Below, one piece after another: positions 10,690 to 58,240 of a stretch of DNA of 64,000 nucleotides. Source of the stretch: Escherichia coli. GTDB lineage: Bacteria; Pseudomonadota; Gammaproteobacteria; Enterobacterales; Enterobacteriaceae. The translations under genes and the position numbers were made by a program. The stretch lies in NCBI RefSeq assembly GCF_024298765.1, contig NZ_CP101210.1, one strand, 5' to 3'. The notes under the pieces were generated by a model. That model was not told the DNA's origin. It saw nothing but the letters and a program-made list of their open reading frames with translations, and ran no database searches. Position 1 is the first letter of the stretch, and each line of letters begins with the position of its first letter.

Positions 10690-12219
10690 ATGAGACGGGC
10701 AATCAGCTACATCAGATTTTCAAGTGAACGACAACTAAAAGGGGACTCTGTACGCAGACAATCTAAGCTGGTCACTGACTGGCTTGATAAGAACCCTGAG
10801 TTTTACTTGGATTCATCCTTGAGCTTTAAAGATTTGGGGAAAAGTGCTTTTAGTGGTAAGCACTTGAAAGGTGGCTTAGGTGACTTTTTAACCGCTATCG
10901 AGAAAGGGCTTGTTAAAGCTGGTGATACACTACTAATCGAGAGTTTAGACCGTCTCTCACGTCAGGATATTGATATTGCTTCTGAGCTATTACGTCGTAT
11001 CTTAAGGGCTGGTGTAGATATAGTCACACTGAGCGATGGTGAACATTACACACGAGAAAGTTTAAAAGACCCGTTATCCCTGATTAAAAGCATTCTGATA
11101 ATGCAGCGGGCGCATGAGGAAAGTCTGAGGAAGTCTGAGCGTGTCCAAGCTGCATGGAACCGTAAAAAAGAACTCATCTCCGAAGGTATCAAGGTATCTA
11201 GGCGTTGTCCTGCATGGTTAAGGCTGAATGATGACCGTCGAACATTCACTATCATCCCCGATAAAGTGGAAGTTGTTAAACGAGCATTTGACCTGAGATT
11301 ACAGGGTTTAAGCTTTTGGGCTATCACCAGAACTTTAAACGATGAAGGCCACTTGTCATTGAATCAATACACACCTAAACAAAAGGGATGGTCTGATACT
11401 GCTGTAAAGAAACTACTCAGAAATCGTGCTGTGATTGGATGTTTCACACCTGCTGGACGTGAAGAAGTTCAGGGTTACTACCCCGCAATAATCAGTGAGT
11501 CACTATTCTATCGAGTACAGCAACTGAACACAGGGCAATATGGTAGGGCTTCTGTATCAAGTAATCCGCTATCAGTCAACTTGTTCAGGGGTATCATCAA
11601 ATGTTCTGAGTGTGGGGCTACTATTGTTCTTGGTGGATATGCCTTAAAACGTTTTGGGATGTACAGATGCCCTAATCGTTCAGCTAACAGGTGTAGTGCA
11701 AAGGCTATCAGTCGTAAGCAAACGGATACAACTATCCTTTACATGCTCGCATTATGCGACCGTTTTGAAACTGAAAATACTGACACTATTGATAGCCTTA
11801 AATTACAGCGTGAAGATTTGCAGCGTAAAATCTCAAAAATGGCAGAACTCGCTATTGAACTCGATGACATGACAATTATCACAGAGAAATTACGTGATAT
11901 GAAGAATGCGCTATCAAAACTCAATCATGATATCGAAGAGGAAACAAAGCGGATAAAGGCCATCACAACTGGAAGCCTCAAAGATATTGACAGGACAACA
12001 AAGGAAGGGATGATAGAGACACAGCTACTTATCAAGGGCGTACTCAAAGAAATAGTTATAGATGCCGCTAAACGTCGCTGTAAAGTGACTTTTCACAACG
12101 GTAAGGTAATTGACCTACCTATAACAGAAAACCCCTCAGAGGACGTTACAGAGGCCATACAGTCGCTTTCTGAAGTCACTGAGAGGGGTTTAATAGATGT
12201 TGATGTAGTAGCGATTTAG
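10690..12219 (+). CDS. Large serine recombinase (integrase-type)
   Basis: About 509 aa: N-terminal resolvase-type catalytic domain (AISYIRFSSERQ with the candidate Ser nucleophile; SLDRLSRQ), a Cys-rich zinc-ribbon-like segment (CSECGATIVLGG...YRCPNRSANRCS) and a C-terminal predicted coiled coil. ATG at 10690 preceded by AGGT. Confidence 0.8.
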   Translation: MRRAISYIRFSSERQLKGDSVRRQSKLVTDWLDKNPEFYLDSSLSFKDLGKSAFSGKHLKGGLGDFLTAIEKGLVKAGDTLLIESLDRLSRQDIDIASELLRRILRAGVDIVTLSDGEHYTRESLKDPLSLIKSILIMQRAHEESLRKSERVQAAWNRKKELISEGIKVSRRCPAWLRLNDDRRTFTIIPDKVEVVKRAFDLRLQGLSFWAITRTLNDEGHLSLNQYTPKQKGWSDTAVKKLLRNRAVIGCFTPAGREEVQGYYPAIISESLFYRVQQLNTGQYGRASVSSNPLSVNLFRGIIKCSECGATIVLGGYALKRFGMYRCPNRSANRCSAKAISRKQTDTTILYMLALCDRFETENTDTIDSLKLQREDLQRKISKMAELAIELDDMTIITEKLRDMKNALSKLNHDIEEETKRIKAITTGSLKDIDRTTKEGMIETQLLIKGVLKEIVIDAAKRRCKVTFHNGKVIDLPITENPSEDVTEAIQSLSEVTERGLIDVDVVAI

Positions 12220-12358
12220 TATCTCTTATTAGGATTCACTGAGTACTTTTTAAGCTTTGAAGCTACCCGACCAGCGTTACTGTTAGCATTGGTGAGGTTG
12301 GTTTTTTCAGCTTCTTCACAAAAAAGCTTCAGAGGTCTTCTTAACCATCCGCTAAGCA

Positions 12359-12402
12359 GGAGAGAGGGTGGTACATGAGAAAGAACCCTCACTTCTAAAA
12401 AG
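12359..12402 (+). repeat. Copy A of recurring element motif GAGAGAGGG-N-ACCCT-N-AAAAG
   Basis: ggagagagggtggtacatgagaaagaaccctcacttctaaaaag; contains the inverted repeat GAGGG...CCCTC; about 140 bp after the large recombinase stop. Confidence 0.5.
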
Positions 12403-12807
12403 ATTTTTTAGCTATTTTGCTTAAAACCATATCAAAAGATACATTTTATTGATTCAGGTCAAAGACAAAAGCATTGACAAAATGGTAAAATTGTTCACAT
12501 GACCTTACTTAACAGACTTTTTAAGAGCTTTTGAGAAGCTTGTTGAACAGACACTCTTTCTGGAGTGTTGTCTTTTACTTAAGAGGTTTGTTTAGATAAC
12601 TCTCAAGGCATCTCTTAAGAATCACTGTTAAGGTGATACTCTCCCTTCGGGTTATATCGTATCTCTTCTCCCGTTAGACAGTTTTTCCTAGCAACTTCAT
12701 AGTTATCTGTCAAGTGCCTTTGAAGATTCCATCAAGACCTCTGAATCTGACCTGATATAGATGCTGTGAAGGCATATTCTCTAGGTCTGTGTAGCTTACT
12801 TAGTGGG

Positions 12808-12853
12808 AAGAGAGGGATATAGTGACCATAGGGGAACCCCTCCTGTTAAAAAG
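12808..12853 (+). repeat. Copy B of the recurring element motif
   Basis: aagagagggatatagtgaccataggggaacccctcctgttaaaaag; same GAGGG...CCCTC arrangement, same orientation. Confidence 0.45.
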
Positions 12854-13356
12854 ACTACTTAGAAGTCTGAGACTTTAGTAAAATCTGTGAATATAGCTTC
12901 TCAGACGCTCTGTAACGCATTCTAAGCGATTTTACCACCTTATTTTAAGGTGGGTGGTACATCCCTATAGGTTACCCTAAAAATGGGGTTAAAACTCGCT
13001 ACAGAGCTTTCTATGAGGCTTGGTAGAGTTGCATAAATTTTACACAACACTTATTCAGCTTCTAAATTTTTTTATAAAAAATCGTAGTAACCCCTCTACA
13101 TTCCCCTTCACCGATAATCTTCAAAAATATCTATCACAGGTCTATACCTGCTAAGTACCCGTCACTACGCCTAAGTGGTCCCCTTTGCAAAATTTTAAAA
13201 TATCTATTGACTTTTTATGTGAACTGTTATAAAGACCGCTCCATCTCTTAGGCATACCGTTATAGCATACTAAAAAGGTATAGCTAACCCCCTGTAAAAA
13301 CCATACCGATTAGCCTTGTAAAACACTTTATCGGTACATTATACTCAACTCATCAA

Positions 13357-13926
13357 ATGAGTAAGGCAAATGAGTATATTATGGCTAACATTGGTTATAT
13401 CCGAGTTTCATCAATCCAGCAGATTACAGACCGTCAACTTGAAGGGGTCGTACTGGATAAGATATTTACTGATAAAGCATCTGGGAAGAATACAGACCGT
13501 CCACAACTAAAGGCTATGCTCGATTATGTTCGTGAAGGTGATGTTATCCATGTACACGACTTGTCACGTTTAGGGCGCTCTACCGTGGATGTATTAACGC
13601 TGGTGGATAAACTTTCACAGAAAGGTATCAAGGTTCACTTTCACAAAGAAGGTCTGATAACTGGTGACGATAACCCCACGTCTAAGATGATTCTCACAAT
13701 CTTTTCAGCAGTGGCTGAAGCTGAACGTAAAATGATGCTTGAGCGTCAACGAGAAGGCTATGAAGCTGCTAAAGCTGCTGGTCGTGTAGTTGGAAGGGGT
13801 AACGGTAAAGCGGTTGACAGAGAAGGTATTAAAGCTGCTCTTGCTGCTGGTGGTTCAATCGCTAAAGTAGCCGCTCAATTCAACGTTGCCAAGTCAACTG
13901 TACAGCGTATTAAAGCTGAAGATTAA
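13357..13926 (+). CDS. Small serine recombinase, resolvase/invertase type with C-terminal HTH
   Basis: 189 aa; GYIRVSSIQQ catalytic motif, IFTDKASG and LSRLGRS motifs typical of Tn3/gamma-delta-type resolvases, C-terminal HTH (IAKVAAQFNVAKSTVQRI). Alternative start ATG at 13381. Confidence 0.82.
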   Translation: MSKANEYIMANIGYIRVSSIQQITDRQLEGVVLDKIFTDKASGKNTDRPQLKAMLDYVREGDVIHVHDLSRLGRSTVDVLTLVDKLSQKGIKVHFHKEGLITGDDNPTSKMILTIFSAVAEAERKMMLERQREGYEAAKAAGRVVGRGNGKAVDREGIKAALAAGGSIAKVAAQFNVAKSTVQRIKAED

Positions 13927-13939
13927 GTCAGGAAATACA

Positions 13940-14623
13940 TTAGATTTTTCTTCCAAATAAACTTGGGAGATTCTTACGGTTTCTTGCTTGCATCATTATT
14001 TCTGGGCTAACAAGTTTTTTTAATTCGCTTCTGTACTCATCAATAGAACACTCATCCGCAACAAGTTTTGAAATCAGGTCTTCAATAGACATAACATCTT
14101 GTTGCAGGAAATCAAGTTCACGAGACAAGTGCTTTTTTTGATTCTCTAACTTTCCTATCTCAGCATTTAAGTTATCTACATCTGTCGCCAATTTCTCTGC
14201 CTGAGATTTCAAATTACTTGTATCTTCTTTTTCTCTTTCGATAAGGTTTTTTTGTTTCTCAATCTTCAACTTTGACGTCAGTCTAGCTGACTCTTCAAGA
14301 TTTTCAGCTTCTACTTTTTGTCTTGCTCGCCATGCGGTTGCCTTGATTTGAAGTAGTGTTACAAGGTTGCTGAAGTAAGGGAAAAAGGTCGCCAAAATGA
14401 ACCCTAGCCCTACGGGATAGCATAATGTTTTTAGATAGAAGTCTTCCGTCGATGTGATTTGTTGAATACGAGTAACAACCGAAGCCTCACTAAGACACAT
14501 GATAGCAATGCTTTTCCAGTTAAATCCCACCCATGACAAAATGATGTAGCCCCATAAAGGGTTAGCTACTCGTTCCTTCAACGCCTGCTTAACTGATTCC
14601 GTGATACTTTCTTCACTACTCAC
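13940..14623 (-). CDS. Hypothetical protein with two N-terminal hydrophobic segments and a C-terminal predicted coiled coil
   Basis: 227 aa ORF confined to the insertion; hydrophobic segments WGYIILSWVGFNW and PVGLGFILATFFPYF, then a K/E-rich heptad-like region; no family recognised. Confidence 0.6.
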   Translation of the reverse strand: MSSEESITESVKQALKERVANPLWGYIILSWVGFNWKSIAIMCLSEASVVTRIQQITSTEDFYLKTLCYPVGLGFILATFFPYFSNLVTLLQIKATAWRARQKVEAENLEESARLTSKLKIEKQKNLIEREKEDTSNLKSQAEKLATDVDNLNAEIGKLENQKKHLSRELDFLQQDVMSIEDLISKLVADECSIDEYRSELKKLVSPEIMMQARNRKNLPSLFGRKI

Positions 14624-14714
14624 AATTACTGCTCCATAGAAAACTCTGGTTTGAGAAATTTTAATGCGAATCCAATCAGTTAGATAGACCTGTAAATAGC
14701 AATTTTATAGAAGT

Positions 14715-14756
14715 CGAGAGAGGGATGACTAACACCCTGCATAGTTTCCTGAAAAG
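14715..14756 (+). repeat. Copy D of the recurring element motif
   Basis: cgagagagggatgactaacaccctgcatagtttcctgaaaag; same orientation; about 95 bp upstream of the minus-strand 227 aa gene start. Confidence 0.45.
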
Positions 14757-14954
14757 AGACTTCGCATATTATCTATATATTTCAATAAGTTATGCTAAAA
14801 AGGAACTATACCAATACTGCATAGATTCTGCGTAAAACTGCTTGGATACTTGGAAATCCACCATTAAATTGCATAGTCATTCACCTGATAAAGCCTGTTA
14901 TTAACAGGTGATAGGATTCGGATGTTCTCATAGTGTATTTAGGGAATTAATATC

Positions 14955-16001
14955 AGCATTACATTTTTATTTTCGGCCATCGCCTCACCGTTTTGGGGTG
15001 GACTCGCCGACCGTAAAGGCCGAAAACTCATGCTATTACGCTCTGCCCTCGGCATGGGCATCGTGATGGTGTTGATGGGACTGGCACAAAATATCTGGCA
15101 GTTTTTGATCCTGCGGGCGCTTCTTGGGTTACTTGGCGGATTTGTCCCCAACGCTAATGCTCTTATCGCCACACAAGTACCGCGTAATAAAAGCGGCTGG
15201 GCGCTGGGTACGCTCTCCACAGGCGGCGTTAGTGGTGCGTTGCTCGGCCCAATGGCTGGCGGCCTGCTCGCCGATAGCTACGGCTTACGTCCGGTATTCT
15301 TTATTACCGCCAGTGTGCTCATACTCTGCTTTTTCGTCACCCTGTTCTGCATCAGAGAAAAATTCCAGCCGGTCAGCAAAAAAGAGATGCTGCACATGCG
15401 GGAAGTGGTGACATCACTTAAAAACCCGAAACTGGTACTCAGCCTGTTTGTCACCACGTTAATCATCCAGGTGGCGACAGGCTCAATTGCCCCCATTCTG
15501 ACGCTGTATGTCCGCGAACTGGCGGGTAACGTCAGTAACGTCGCCTTTATCAGTGGCATGATCGCCTCGGTGCCAGGCGTGGCGGCTCTGCTAAGCGCAC
15601 CACGACTCGGCAAACTTGGCGATCGAATCGGACCCGAAAAGATCCTGATTACAGCGCTGATCTTTTCTGTACTGCTGTTGATCCCAATGTCTTACGTTCA
15701 GACGCCATTGCAACTTGGGATTTTACGTTTTTTGCTCGGTGCCGCCGATGGTGCACTACTCCCCGCCGTACAGACACTGTTGGTTTACAACTCGAGCAAC
15801 CAGATCGCCGGGCGTATCTTCAGCTATAACCAATCGTTTCGTGATATTGGCAACGTTACCGGACCATTGATGGGAGCAGCGATTTCAGCGAACTACGGTT
15901 TCAGAGCGGTATTTCTCGTCACCGCTGGCGTCGTGTTATTCAACGCAGTCTATTCATGGAACAGTCTACGTCGTCGTCGAATACCCCAGGTATCGAACTG
16001 A
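14955..16001 (+). pseudogene. mdtG: mdtG 3' fragment (C-terminal ~348 codons), separated from its 5' part by the insertion
   Basis: In frame from 14955: [43 protein letters not shown]... to ...[13 protein letters not shown], recognised as the remainder of MdtG; no start codon or RBS in native context. Confidence 0.85.
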
Positions 16002-57894: not shown

Positions 57895-58240
57895 GCCTGA
57901 TGCGACGCTTAACGCGTCTTATCAGGCCCACAAAAAGCACTGTTCCCGTAGGCCGGATAAGGCGTTCATGCCGCATCCGGCAACTGCGCCATAATGCCTG
58001 ATGCGACGCTTAACGCATCTTATCAGGCCCACAAAAAGCACTGTTCCCGTAGGCCGGATAAGGCGTTCTCGCCGCATCCGGCAACTGCGCCATAATGCCT
58101 GATGCGACGCTTAACGCATCTTATCAGGCCCACAAAAAGCACTGTTCCCGTAGGCCGGATAAGGCGTTCTCGCCGCATCCGGCAACTGCGCACTAATGCC
58201 TGATGCGACGCCTGCCGCGTCTTATCAGGCCTACAAACGG
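57895..58240. repeat. Tandem BIME/REP cluster (about 3.4 units of ~100 bp)
   Basis: tgcctgatgcgacgcttaacgc(g/a)tcttatcaggcccacaaaaagcactgttcccgtaggccggataaggcgtt...gccgcatccggcaactgcgccataa repeated head to tail from 57895, 57995, 58096 and 58197. Confidence 0.85.

Follow-up and report, generated by a model that had tools for sequence, protein, structure and literature searches.

Non-coding modules of a serine-recombinase island in Escherichia coli and their homology to the terminal-repeat region of Felix O1-like phages

Phage satellites are known to carry the packaging sites of their helper phages; the cos site of P2 is present on P4, and cos sites are found on SaPIbov5 and EcCICFT073. Plasmids that contain a T7 origin together with the T7 concatemer junction are likewise packaged into transducing particles. 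The present work deals with an AT-rich segment of about 1.1 kb, free of open reading frames (ORFs), at positions 12220-13356 of a 64,000-nucleotide stretch of Escherichia coli chromosome (contig NZ_CP101210.1; the whole stretch is called the window). The segment lies between the genes of a large serine recombinase (LSR) and a small serine recombinase in an island inserted in the gene mdtG. As in the cos/pac satellites and the T7 plasmids, the element is small, lacks a complete set of virion genes and bears non-coding DNA resembling the genome end of a helper, including the position of the terminase cut. It differs from the satellites in that the candidate helpers are virulent myophages which package by direct terminal repeats (DTRs), the mimic is rearranged with one clear boundary, no capsid-resizing function was seen, and packaging is so far a prediction.

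Judged from sequence, the segment has a probability of about 0.5 of being the cis-acting core of an island that is mobilised by its LSR and lives as a parasite of virulent Felix O1-like phages (Ounavirinae), or at any rate senses them. On the best reading available, it would act as a mimic of the helper phage genome end, for packaging, replication or transcription hijack, in a satellite resembling PLE of Vibrio cholerae. PLE is described as a satellite of the virulent myophage ICP1 (PMC6002521, PMC7145576). The island shares with PLE an LSR at one end, a compact layout, a long non-coding stretch separating divergent blocks of genes and, in the working model, dependence on a virulent phage. In contrast, PLE encodes RepA, has an origin of its own and lacks phage tail genes, whereas no replication gene is recognisable in the island; no sequence relationship between the two was seen, no test aimed at one having been made.

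A third comparison is offered by the PeSL elements of T4-type phages, 'mobile regulatory cassettes' composed of a promoter and stem-loop repeats at module junctions. The island likewise has hairpin motifs at the borders of exchangeable modules and homing-endonuclease genes between modules, but it shows no sequence similarity to PeSLs and no promoter was identified inside its motif. No membership in described satellite, Rfam or defence families was found by sequence, and a literature search returned no report of serine-recombinase islands at mdtG or yecE or of satellites of Ounavirinae.

Homology to the phage terminal-repeat region

Comparison of homologues showed the segment to be a conserved mosaic of non-coding modules. 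Its features are as follows, in window coordinates.

12362-12402, + strand: motif copy 1, a GAGGG...CCCTC hairpin followed by TAAAAAG (repeat family D4; motif search)
12395-12520, + strand: near-invariant block of about 125 bp (nearly all columns identical in 8, then in 42 homologues)
12462-12491, + strand: promoter P1 of the extended -10 type (AAGACA 12462-12467, TGg 12483-12485, TAAAAT 12486-12491)
12508-12632, + strand: the "rod", a long imperfect hairpin of 125 nt closed by CTTAACAG (12508-12515) and CTGTTAAG (12625-12632)
12635-12663, + strand: UUCG-tipped hairpin (outer stem GATAC/GTATC, replaced by GAACC/GGTTC or GTAAC/GTTAC in relatives)
12670-12807, + strand: domain 3, closed by CCCGTTA and TAGTGGG (RNAalifold gave the same closing helix on versions a and c)
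12810-12853, + strand: motif copy 2, the end of module A (motif search)
12863-13025, + strand: hairpin-rich element of 160 nt (fold z-score -3.25 for 12860-13240)
13047-13222, + strand: module B, homologue of the phage terminal-repeat boundary (nhmmer; blastn; alignment A7)
13207-13233, + strand: promoter-like site P2, TTGACT, a 15-nt spacer and TGtTATAAA (read from sequence; faces the recombinase gene)
13254-13378, no strand assigned: three dyads, a candidate res or operator site directly 5' of the recombinase start

A profile made from the non-coding regions of 38 islands was used as nhmmer query against nine phages, namely SUSP1, finno, HP1, Felix O1, Maleficent, AYO145A, Meda, Si3 and REP12. 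The matches fall in the ORF-free gap of these phages, all on one strand. Module B was matched in all nine with E-values of 1e-14 to 1e-20 (1e-13 in the search of the whole SUSP1 genome) and the rod in eight, all but Si3, with E-values of 1e-7 to 2e-3 (9e-7 in the whole-genome search of SUSP1). Domain 3 is weakly similar to phage sequence just outside the repeat (nhmmer E 0.03-0.05). In the whole-genome search of SUSP1, the profile matched a 1.7 kb ORF-free gap at 72919-74614, with all matches on one strand. The phage homology is visible only with the family profile or with short-word blastn, by which the window sequence itself matched SUSP1 at E 1e-10; the whole segment, compared by blastn with collections of phages and plasmids at E 1e-5, gave no match.

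Among the Ounavirinae, 283 records retain the gap, most of them without annotating it. It was observed that all Ounavirinae examined keep an ORF-free region of 1.6-1.7 kb between convergent gene blocks (SUSP1 72919-74614, equivalent to L056 22919-24614; Felix O1 12307-13897), with a repeat of about 570 bp, TTAACA(R) and TATATAG arrays, an internal extended -10 and hairpins. The records that had been opened at the physical genome ends break inside the gap, at query positions of about 1219 and 651, and the HP1 record annotates a 570 bp repeat_region at its start. DTR packaging with a repeat of 581 bp has been reported for a Felixounavirus (PMC8303462; also PMC11737134), and short terminal repeats were inferred in the paper on Felix O1 (PMC3185647). 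From the HP1 annotation, the record ends and the reported DTR together, it was concluded that the repeat corresponds to SUSP1 73965-73396.

The HP1 repeat boundary aligns to window position 13153|13154, within the conserved CTGCT(A/T)|(A/G)GTA(C/G)CC. Module B spans one boundary of the repeat, a position at which, as at the other boundary, concatemers have to be cut by the phage terminase, and the rod homologue lies inside the repeat. At the level of sequence, the homology of these two modules to the Ounavirinae terminal-repeat region, including the sequence at one boundary, is solid. Within module B, the blocks common to island and phage are TTTTTATAAAA, AAAATATCT (13124-13134, 13197-13207), CTGCTA|AGTACC and CCCCTTTGCAAAA (13180-13192), and in E. 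coli it is the most widely retained of the modules.

The phage gap also contains a dense TTAACA(R) array and an extended -10 element, TGtTAAGAT, 5' of the rod homologue. The presence of such a promoter 5' of the rod in island and phage alike supports the satellite reading. The gap further has a hairpin similar to the UUCG hairpin of the island, seen in SUSP1, which reads CCC-UUUC-GGG and has a different outer stem. The seven phages examined at the rod are nearly identical there, with too little variation to show covariation. The TTAACA(R) word also builds the CTTAACAG/CTGTTAAG pair of the island and the palindrome CCTGTTATTAACAGG at its right end; hence, these sites may be protein-binding DNA as much as RNA helices.

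Segment modules and their conservation

The segment had been singled out in an earlier note, made from the letters of the window, as ORF-free, AT-rich DNA immediately 5' of a resolvase gene, and this description holds. No ORF of at least 60 aa is present in 12220-13356, the longest that overlaps it being one of 58 aa (12216-12392, minus strand), and GC content is 0.39-0.40 over 12-14 kb, against about 0.50 in the flanks. The neighbouring gene is indeed that of a small serine recombinase; as its RefSeq start lies at window position 13381, the true gap is 12220-13380. Homologous loci were checked for conserved coding sequence and none was seen in about 40 of them; at most 13 of these retain any given small ORF of at least 20 aa over its full length. 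A type I toxin-antitoxin or small-protein locus was accordingly dropped. Short frames opened by the purine run of the repeated motif followed by GTG or ATG vary in frame and length among copies and homologues, and were rejected as coding.

This repeated hairpin motif, which the note had reported in two copies in the segment and one beyond it, was scored as GAGAGGG-N(5-25)-CCCT-N(3-18)-AAAAG. Three copies were recovered, all on the + strand and all within the island, where 100 shuffles gave an expectation of 0, and the GAGAGGG motif recurs in 35 retrieved loci. Copy 1, together with CTAAGCAGGA 5' of it, duplicates the end of module A. A shorter repeat, GGTGGTACAT (12368, 12951), did not survive: it is near chance level, about 0.6 pairs being expected by estimate for a 10-mer in 1.1 kb, and the copy at 12368 is restricted to the lineage of the window.

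In module A, the near-invariant block includes a 17-bp palindrome, CTAAAAAGATTTTTTAG (12395-12411), and an inverted repeat, GTCAA-N11-TTGAC (12458-12478). Transcription from P1 is predicted to start near 12498. Only positions 3-5 of its -10 box vary (TAAAAT/TAAGAT/TATGAT), with the TG, T1, A2 and T6 invariant, a restriction which fits a working promoter facing right. Downstream of P1, the rod exists in two sequence versions, each of which folds independently into a rod. Its closing pair is G-C in 24 sequences, G-U in 14 and A-U in 1, never A-C, and its inner helix is GAGA/TCTC or GAAA/TTTC, with the additional loss of one whole pair. A terminator-like hairpin at 12550-12569 was considered and rejected as a conserved terminator, being part of the rod and present in its version 1 only.

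Two further hairpins had been proposed. The one at 12621-12637 is not kept in homologues; its CTGTTAAG pairs instead with the CTTAACAG of the rod. The CCC-UUCG-GGG stem-loop was borne out as the hairpin 12635-12663, with UUCG at 12646-12649 and an outer stem that covaries, three of its five pairs changing on both sides. When the rod closing helix and the UUCG hairpin were scored in alignment A6, 97.2% of the cells were paired and 38 were double changes. The covariation score was 0.219 against 0.138 in shuffles (none of 500 reached 0.219), and slid controls paired at only 26-49%. The changes in the closing helix, the hairpin and the inner helix probably stem from few events.

The interior of domain 3 occurs in three unrelated versions within the same closing helices, and in one version of the family motif copy 2 is replaced at the same place by another hairpin (GATGCTC...GAGCATC). 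A near-invariant extended -10 promoter followed by a UUCG hairpin with compensatory changes makes transcription of module A probable. Searches of the segment against Rfam 15 gave nothing at the gathering score, only chance-level matches at E up to 10, and ARAGORN found no tRNA or tmRNA. Alignment folding energies and structure conservation indices were similar on both strands. It was also seen that in L008 (8030-8360), left of module A, a strong-looking extended -10 promoter (TTAACA...TGGTATAAT) is followed by a hydrophobic frame without a start codon.

Modules A and B are separated in the window by the 160-nt hairpin-rich element, a second copy of which (about 70% identical) lies 3' of the HNH gene in larger islands, sense to that operon. 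Most islands, but not that of the window, have between the modules another element, which matches G/T-rich (GGT-repeat) elements of about 100 nt that recur in intergenic gaps among the early genes of SUSP1 (L055 27589-27940, 29117-29241); the E-values of these matches may be inflated by composition. In other islands, the interval from module A to module B has been invaded by genes for AP2-HNH homing endonucleases, and the left side of module A or of module B by genes for Dam methylases; in neither case is a module disrupted (insertions at L003 5569-6093, L008 9370-9894, L004 5128-5796 and L053 6175-6837).

To the right of the module B boundary, P2 is kept in the related loci L002 and L005 and absent from the phages; its short spacer suggests that it is weak. 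The three dyads that follow are ATACC...GGTAT (13254-13282), ATACCG...CGGTAC (13303-13337) and TATACTCA...TGAGTATA (13340-13378). RTACCG occurs three times in 84 nt, against about 0.1 expected from the density in the whole window, a count made post hoc and with no divergent orthologue for comparison. In L002 and L005, four TGTCTATA/TATAGACA half-sites lie at the same position, 5' of small recombinases that are not orthologous. As a candidate site, the dyads resemble the res sites of Tn3 and gamma-delta in forming an array of three over about 125 bp directly 5' of a small serine recombinase gene, but their half-site sequence differs and they cover only the last tenth of the segment.

The island and its relatives

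The window is E. coli chromosome and holds the PyrC leader, tRNA-Ser, RtT and naRNA4. The island contains only three genes; its extent, these genes and the third motif copy are as follows.

10651-14956, + strand: whole island, 4306 bp, inserted in mdtG (comparison with uninterrupted mdtG; GC 0.38-0.42)
10684-12219, + strand: LSR (integrase), 511 aa (phrog_95 integrase, E 1e-80; relatives annotated as recombinase family protein)
13381-13926, + strand: small serine recombinase of resolvase/invertase type, 181 aa (phrog_125, E 2e-58)
13940-14623, - strand: protein of 227 aa, N-terminus membrane-like, coiled coil present (phrog_4780/13369, function unknown in PHROG)
14718-14756, + strand: motif copy 3, opening a conserved right-end module, 14679-14918 (motif search)

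Comparison with the empty site gave attB as GTCTTCAG^CATTAC, with the core CAG/TCAG at both island junctions. Excision is predicted to give an attP of the form ...GGGAATTAATATCAG|TATAATGGGTCC... and to restore attB as GTCTTCAG|CATTAC. The LSR gene starts 33 nt inside attL, the left junction, and has the orientation of mdtG; it may therefore be read from the host mdtG promoter when the island is integrated. For the small recombinase, every NCBIfam match was below cut-off, and its identity to those of relatives is 30-34%. A search of the three island proteins with padloc for defence systems gave coiled-coil noise only.

The right-end module closes with the palindrome CCTGTTATTAACAGG at 14895-14909. 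At motif copy 3 (MTNTLHSFLKRDFAYYLYISISYAKKELYQYCIDSA) begins a 36-aa ORF (14725-14835, + strand), which may be a small protein or merely conserved DNA; similar peptides occur in L008 and L003, with YLYISISY kept and, in L008, the same stop, but with ACG in place of ATG. The 227-aa protein has a 277-aa relative (L008 10826-11659, - strand) on the other side of the right-end module, and hence the cargo gene moves relative to the module. In strain 104, an otherwise identical island has its LSR split by ISEc52 of the IS3 family (L001 6395-7564), while the copy in the window is intact; strains NT1F25 and CT265 are further bearers of the island. Elsewhere in the window, three tandem naRNA4 copies (CssrE, REP-derived; 57951-58231) and matches to Ysr251, ES056 and ES036 were noted, all of them ordinary E. 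coli features.

Homologous non-coding DNA was found in 541 of 5426 complete E. coli genomes, at 976 places, all chromosomal, with a median of two per genome and 70-100% identity. An exact 22-mer from the segment was also found in two copies in E. albertii and in 39 metagenome contigs, one of these metagenome matches (L034) being due to chance. Related islands occupy four chromosomal sites, mdtG, yecE, tonB-yciI and ymdF-rutG, and in them the non-coding region is placed 3' of the LSR gene and 5' of variable cargo genes. Between tonB and yciI there is a second 4.3 kb island of the same layout and 82% identity, from which it follows that the short form is itself mobile.

The homologous DNA often lies in larger islands of 11-12 kb (L006 37911-49300, L007 26676-38650, L008 1-10830, L053 and L054), which are found at all four of these sites. 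They have an LSR, 1-1.5 kb of non-coding DNA and, on the minus strand, a gene block that codes for a tape-measure protein, a protein of 254 aa, an HNH endonuclease and small products of unknown function. Their variable gene either codes for an enzyme (small recombinase, AP2-HNH endonuclease or Dam methylase) or is hypothetical. The tape-measure and 254-aa proteins are about 70% identical to gp016 and gp017 of SUSP1, where gp017 follows immediately on the tape-measure gene. The 11-12 kb islands were found to have no genes for capsid, terminase or replication; with phage tail homologues present and these genes absent, they look like an undescribed family of satellites, or of anti-phage islands, for Felix O1-like phages. 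Of the features by which phage satellites are recognised, the islands have an integrase with att sites and occupation of several chromosomal sites, and they carry genes or sites related to the helper but no complete complement of virion genes: such genes are absent from the 4.3 kb form, and the 11-12 kb forms have only the tape-measure protein and the gp017 homologue.

Competing readings and significance

In the proposed course of events, infection by the phage would be followed by LSR-mediated excision of the island, whose copy of the genome end would then be acted on by proteins that the phage normally applies to its own: its terminase, and probably a protein that binds TTAACA(R). Cleavage and packaging of island DNA, possibly with replication as well, would ensue; alternatively, the island would interfere with maturation of the phage. 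P1-driven transcription across the hairpin-rich module would contribute to this, and the small recombinase would use the dyads as its res or operator site.

Several points weigh against this reading. The repeat boundary is based on the annotation of one record and the record ends of a few others, and only one of the two boundaries has a clear counterpart in the island. The order of modules is rod, hairpin, domain 3 and B in the island, but B, rod, domain 3 and hairpin in the phage, and the P1 block has no phage homologue detectable by nhmmer. Phage genomes of 85-90 kb far exceed a unit of 4.3 kb or 12 kb in size, and neither capsid-resizing nor replication genes were recognised in the 4.3 kb or the 11-12 kb islands. 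Excision, packaging and transcription of the island are predictions, and the homology could reflect shared promoters or regulatory cassettes instead of packaging signals. A simple packaging model is weakened by the permuted order, the single clear boundary, the small unit and the lack of recognised replication or capsid-resizing genes. Two other readings, of a structured RNA and of a replication origin, are live alternatives and are compatible with the satellite reading.

According to the former of these, the main product is a structured non-coding RNA (ncRNA) of about 350 nt, or a long leader, running from P1 (about 12498) to the hairpin of motif copy 2 (about 12853). It would control read-through into the recombinase and cargo genes or act in trans on phage or host transcripts, and its phage counterpart would be an early RNA from the terminal repeat. 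An ncRNA had been among the candidates of the earlier note, and what stands of that proposal is a near-invariant promoter leading into the hairpin-rich part, the compensatory changes and the presence of G-U without A-C in the closing helices on the + strand. P1 varies as a functional -10 box would, the same closing helices are common to two or three unrelated interiors, the 3' end of module A is always a hairpin even where its sequence is replaced, and homing-endonuclease genes lie between modules A and B, never inside them. On the other hand, both strands fold alike in alignment folding energy and structure conservation index, the single-sequence z-score is only -2.0, most helix columns are invariant, and the covarying haplotypes may derive from two or three events. 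There is neither an Rfam match nor a conserved intrinsic terminator, and the CTTAACAG/CTGTTAAG 'helix' is made of TTAACA(R), an iteron-like array in the phage, so that it may be protein-binding DNA. The RNA is on balance a tentative proposal, though one that can coexist with the mimicry of a genome end. More doubtful is the wider idea that Felix O1-like phages and E. coli islands share a structured RNA from inside the terminal repeat (promoter, rod, UUCG hairpin and domain 3), which would act in genome-end processing, replication priming or takeover of host or defence functions, the copy on the islands hijacking or jamming that step.

Promoter-dependent origins are known from ColE1, with its RNA II, and from T4, whose oriF and oriG are R-loop origins. 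The segment resembles them in having a strong conserved promoter, a predicted structured transcript of several hundred nucleotides and no initiator gene, but it shows no homology to them and no promoter for an antisense regulator was found; a ColE1-like RNA II origin was therefore rejected and kept as an analogy only. A phage-derived origin, at which the promoter transcript would prime or open the DNA for the phage replisome, would allow the excised island, devoid of replication genes, to amplify, with the small recombinase resolving multimers. Consistent with this are the lack of any recognised replication gene in both island forms, the dense TTAACA(R) array of the phage region, the AT-only palindromes common to phage and module B, the resolvase-type gene with its res-like array adjoining the segment, and a DnaA-box-like TTGTTCACA, read from sequence, that overlaps the P1 start. 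It is opposed by the scarcity of TTAACA(R) in the island (with four exact CTGTTAA sites in 4.3 kb), by the absence of homology to plasmid origins, and by the fact that no Ounavirinae replication origin was found in the Felix O1 paper, which leaves such an origin a rather unlikely explanation.

The remaining readings concern recombination and decay. The proposal that the whole 1.1 kb consists of recombination sites for both serine recombinases, with the motif copies as sites, draws on the three motif copies being direct repeats, on the adjoining resolvase-type gene and on the dyads at 13254-13378. Yet the motif persists in islands where identity of the small recombinase to that of the window falls to 30-34%, and in some relatives the place of this gene is taken by others; no deletion between copies 1 and 2 was seen, the 40 loci being collinear (all retrieved via a 22-mer that lies between those copies); and LSR sites are located at the island ends. 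A typical res of the Tn3 family covers about 120 bp, not 1.1 kb. This proposal is improbable, and of the res-like sites suggested earlier only those in the final 125 bp look like a res or operator site; the three motif copies do not. An invertible promoter switch, with the small recombinase as invertase, had likewise been suggested, and finds some encouragement in the PHROG label of that recombinase (DNA invertase) and in inverted repeats that flank P1 (12325-12339 and 12734-12748, 93% complementary). That pair is not conserved, and no change of orientation across the two arms was seen in any of the 40 homologues, which makes a switch highly improbable. Least credible of all is decay of a coding sequence, by which the segment would be what is left, as a pseudogene, of a deleted prophage; in favour of this it can be said that the island resembles a shortened relative of the 11-12 kb elements. 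It was rejected because no small ORF is conserved and because 1- and 2-base indels are frequent beside near-invariant blocks; the phage counterpart is likewise ORF-free in 283 records, and the 4.3 kb form is mobile in its own right, as its presence at two different sites indicates.

If the satellite reading is correct, about one tenth of complete E. coli genomes would carry undescribed LSR islands aimed at Felix O1-like virulent phages, which are widely used in typing, biocontrol and therapy, and it would be through the non-coding segment that the island takes hold of the phage. The islands would then be an E. coli counterpart to the PLE-ICP1 system of Vibrio cholerae. Module B, at about 180 bp, would provide a compact cis-element for studying how DTR phages recognise their genome ends, and the homology would point to a function for the 1.7 kb gene-free region present in the 283 Ounavirinae records.

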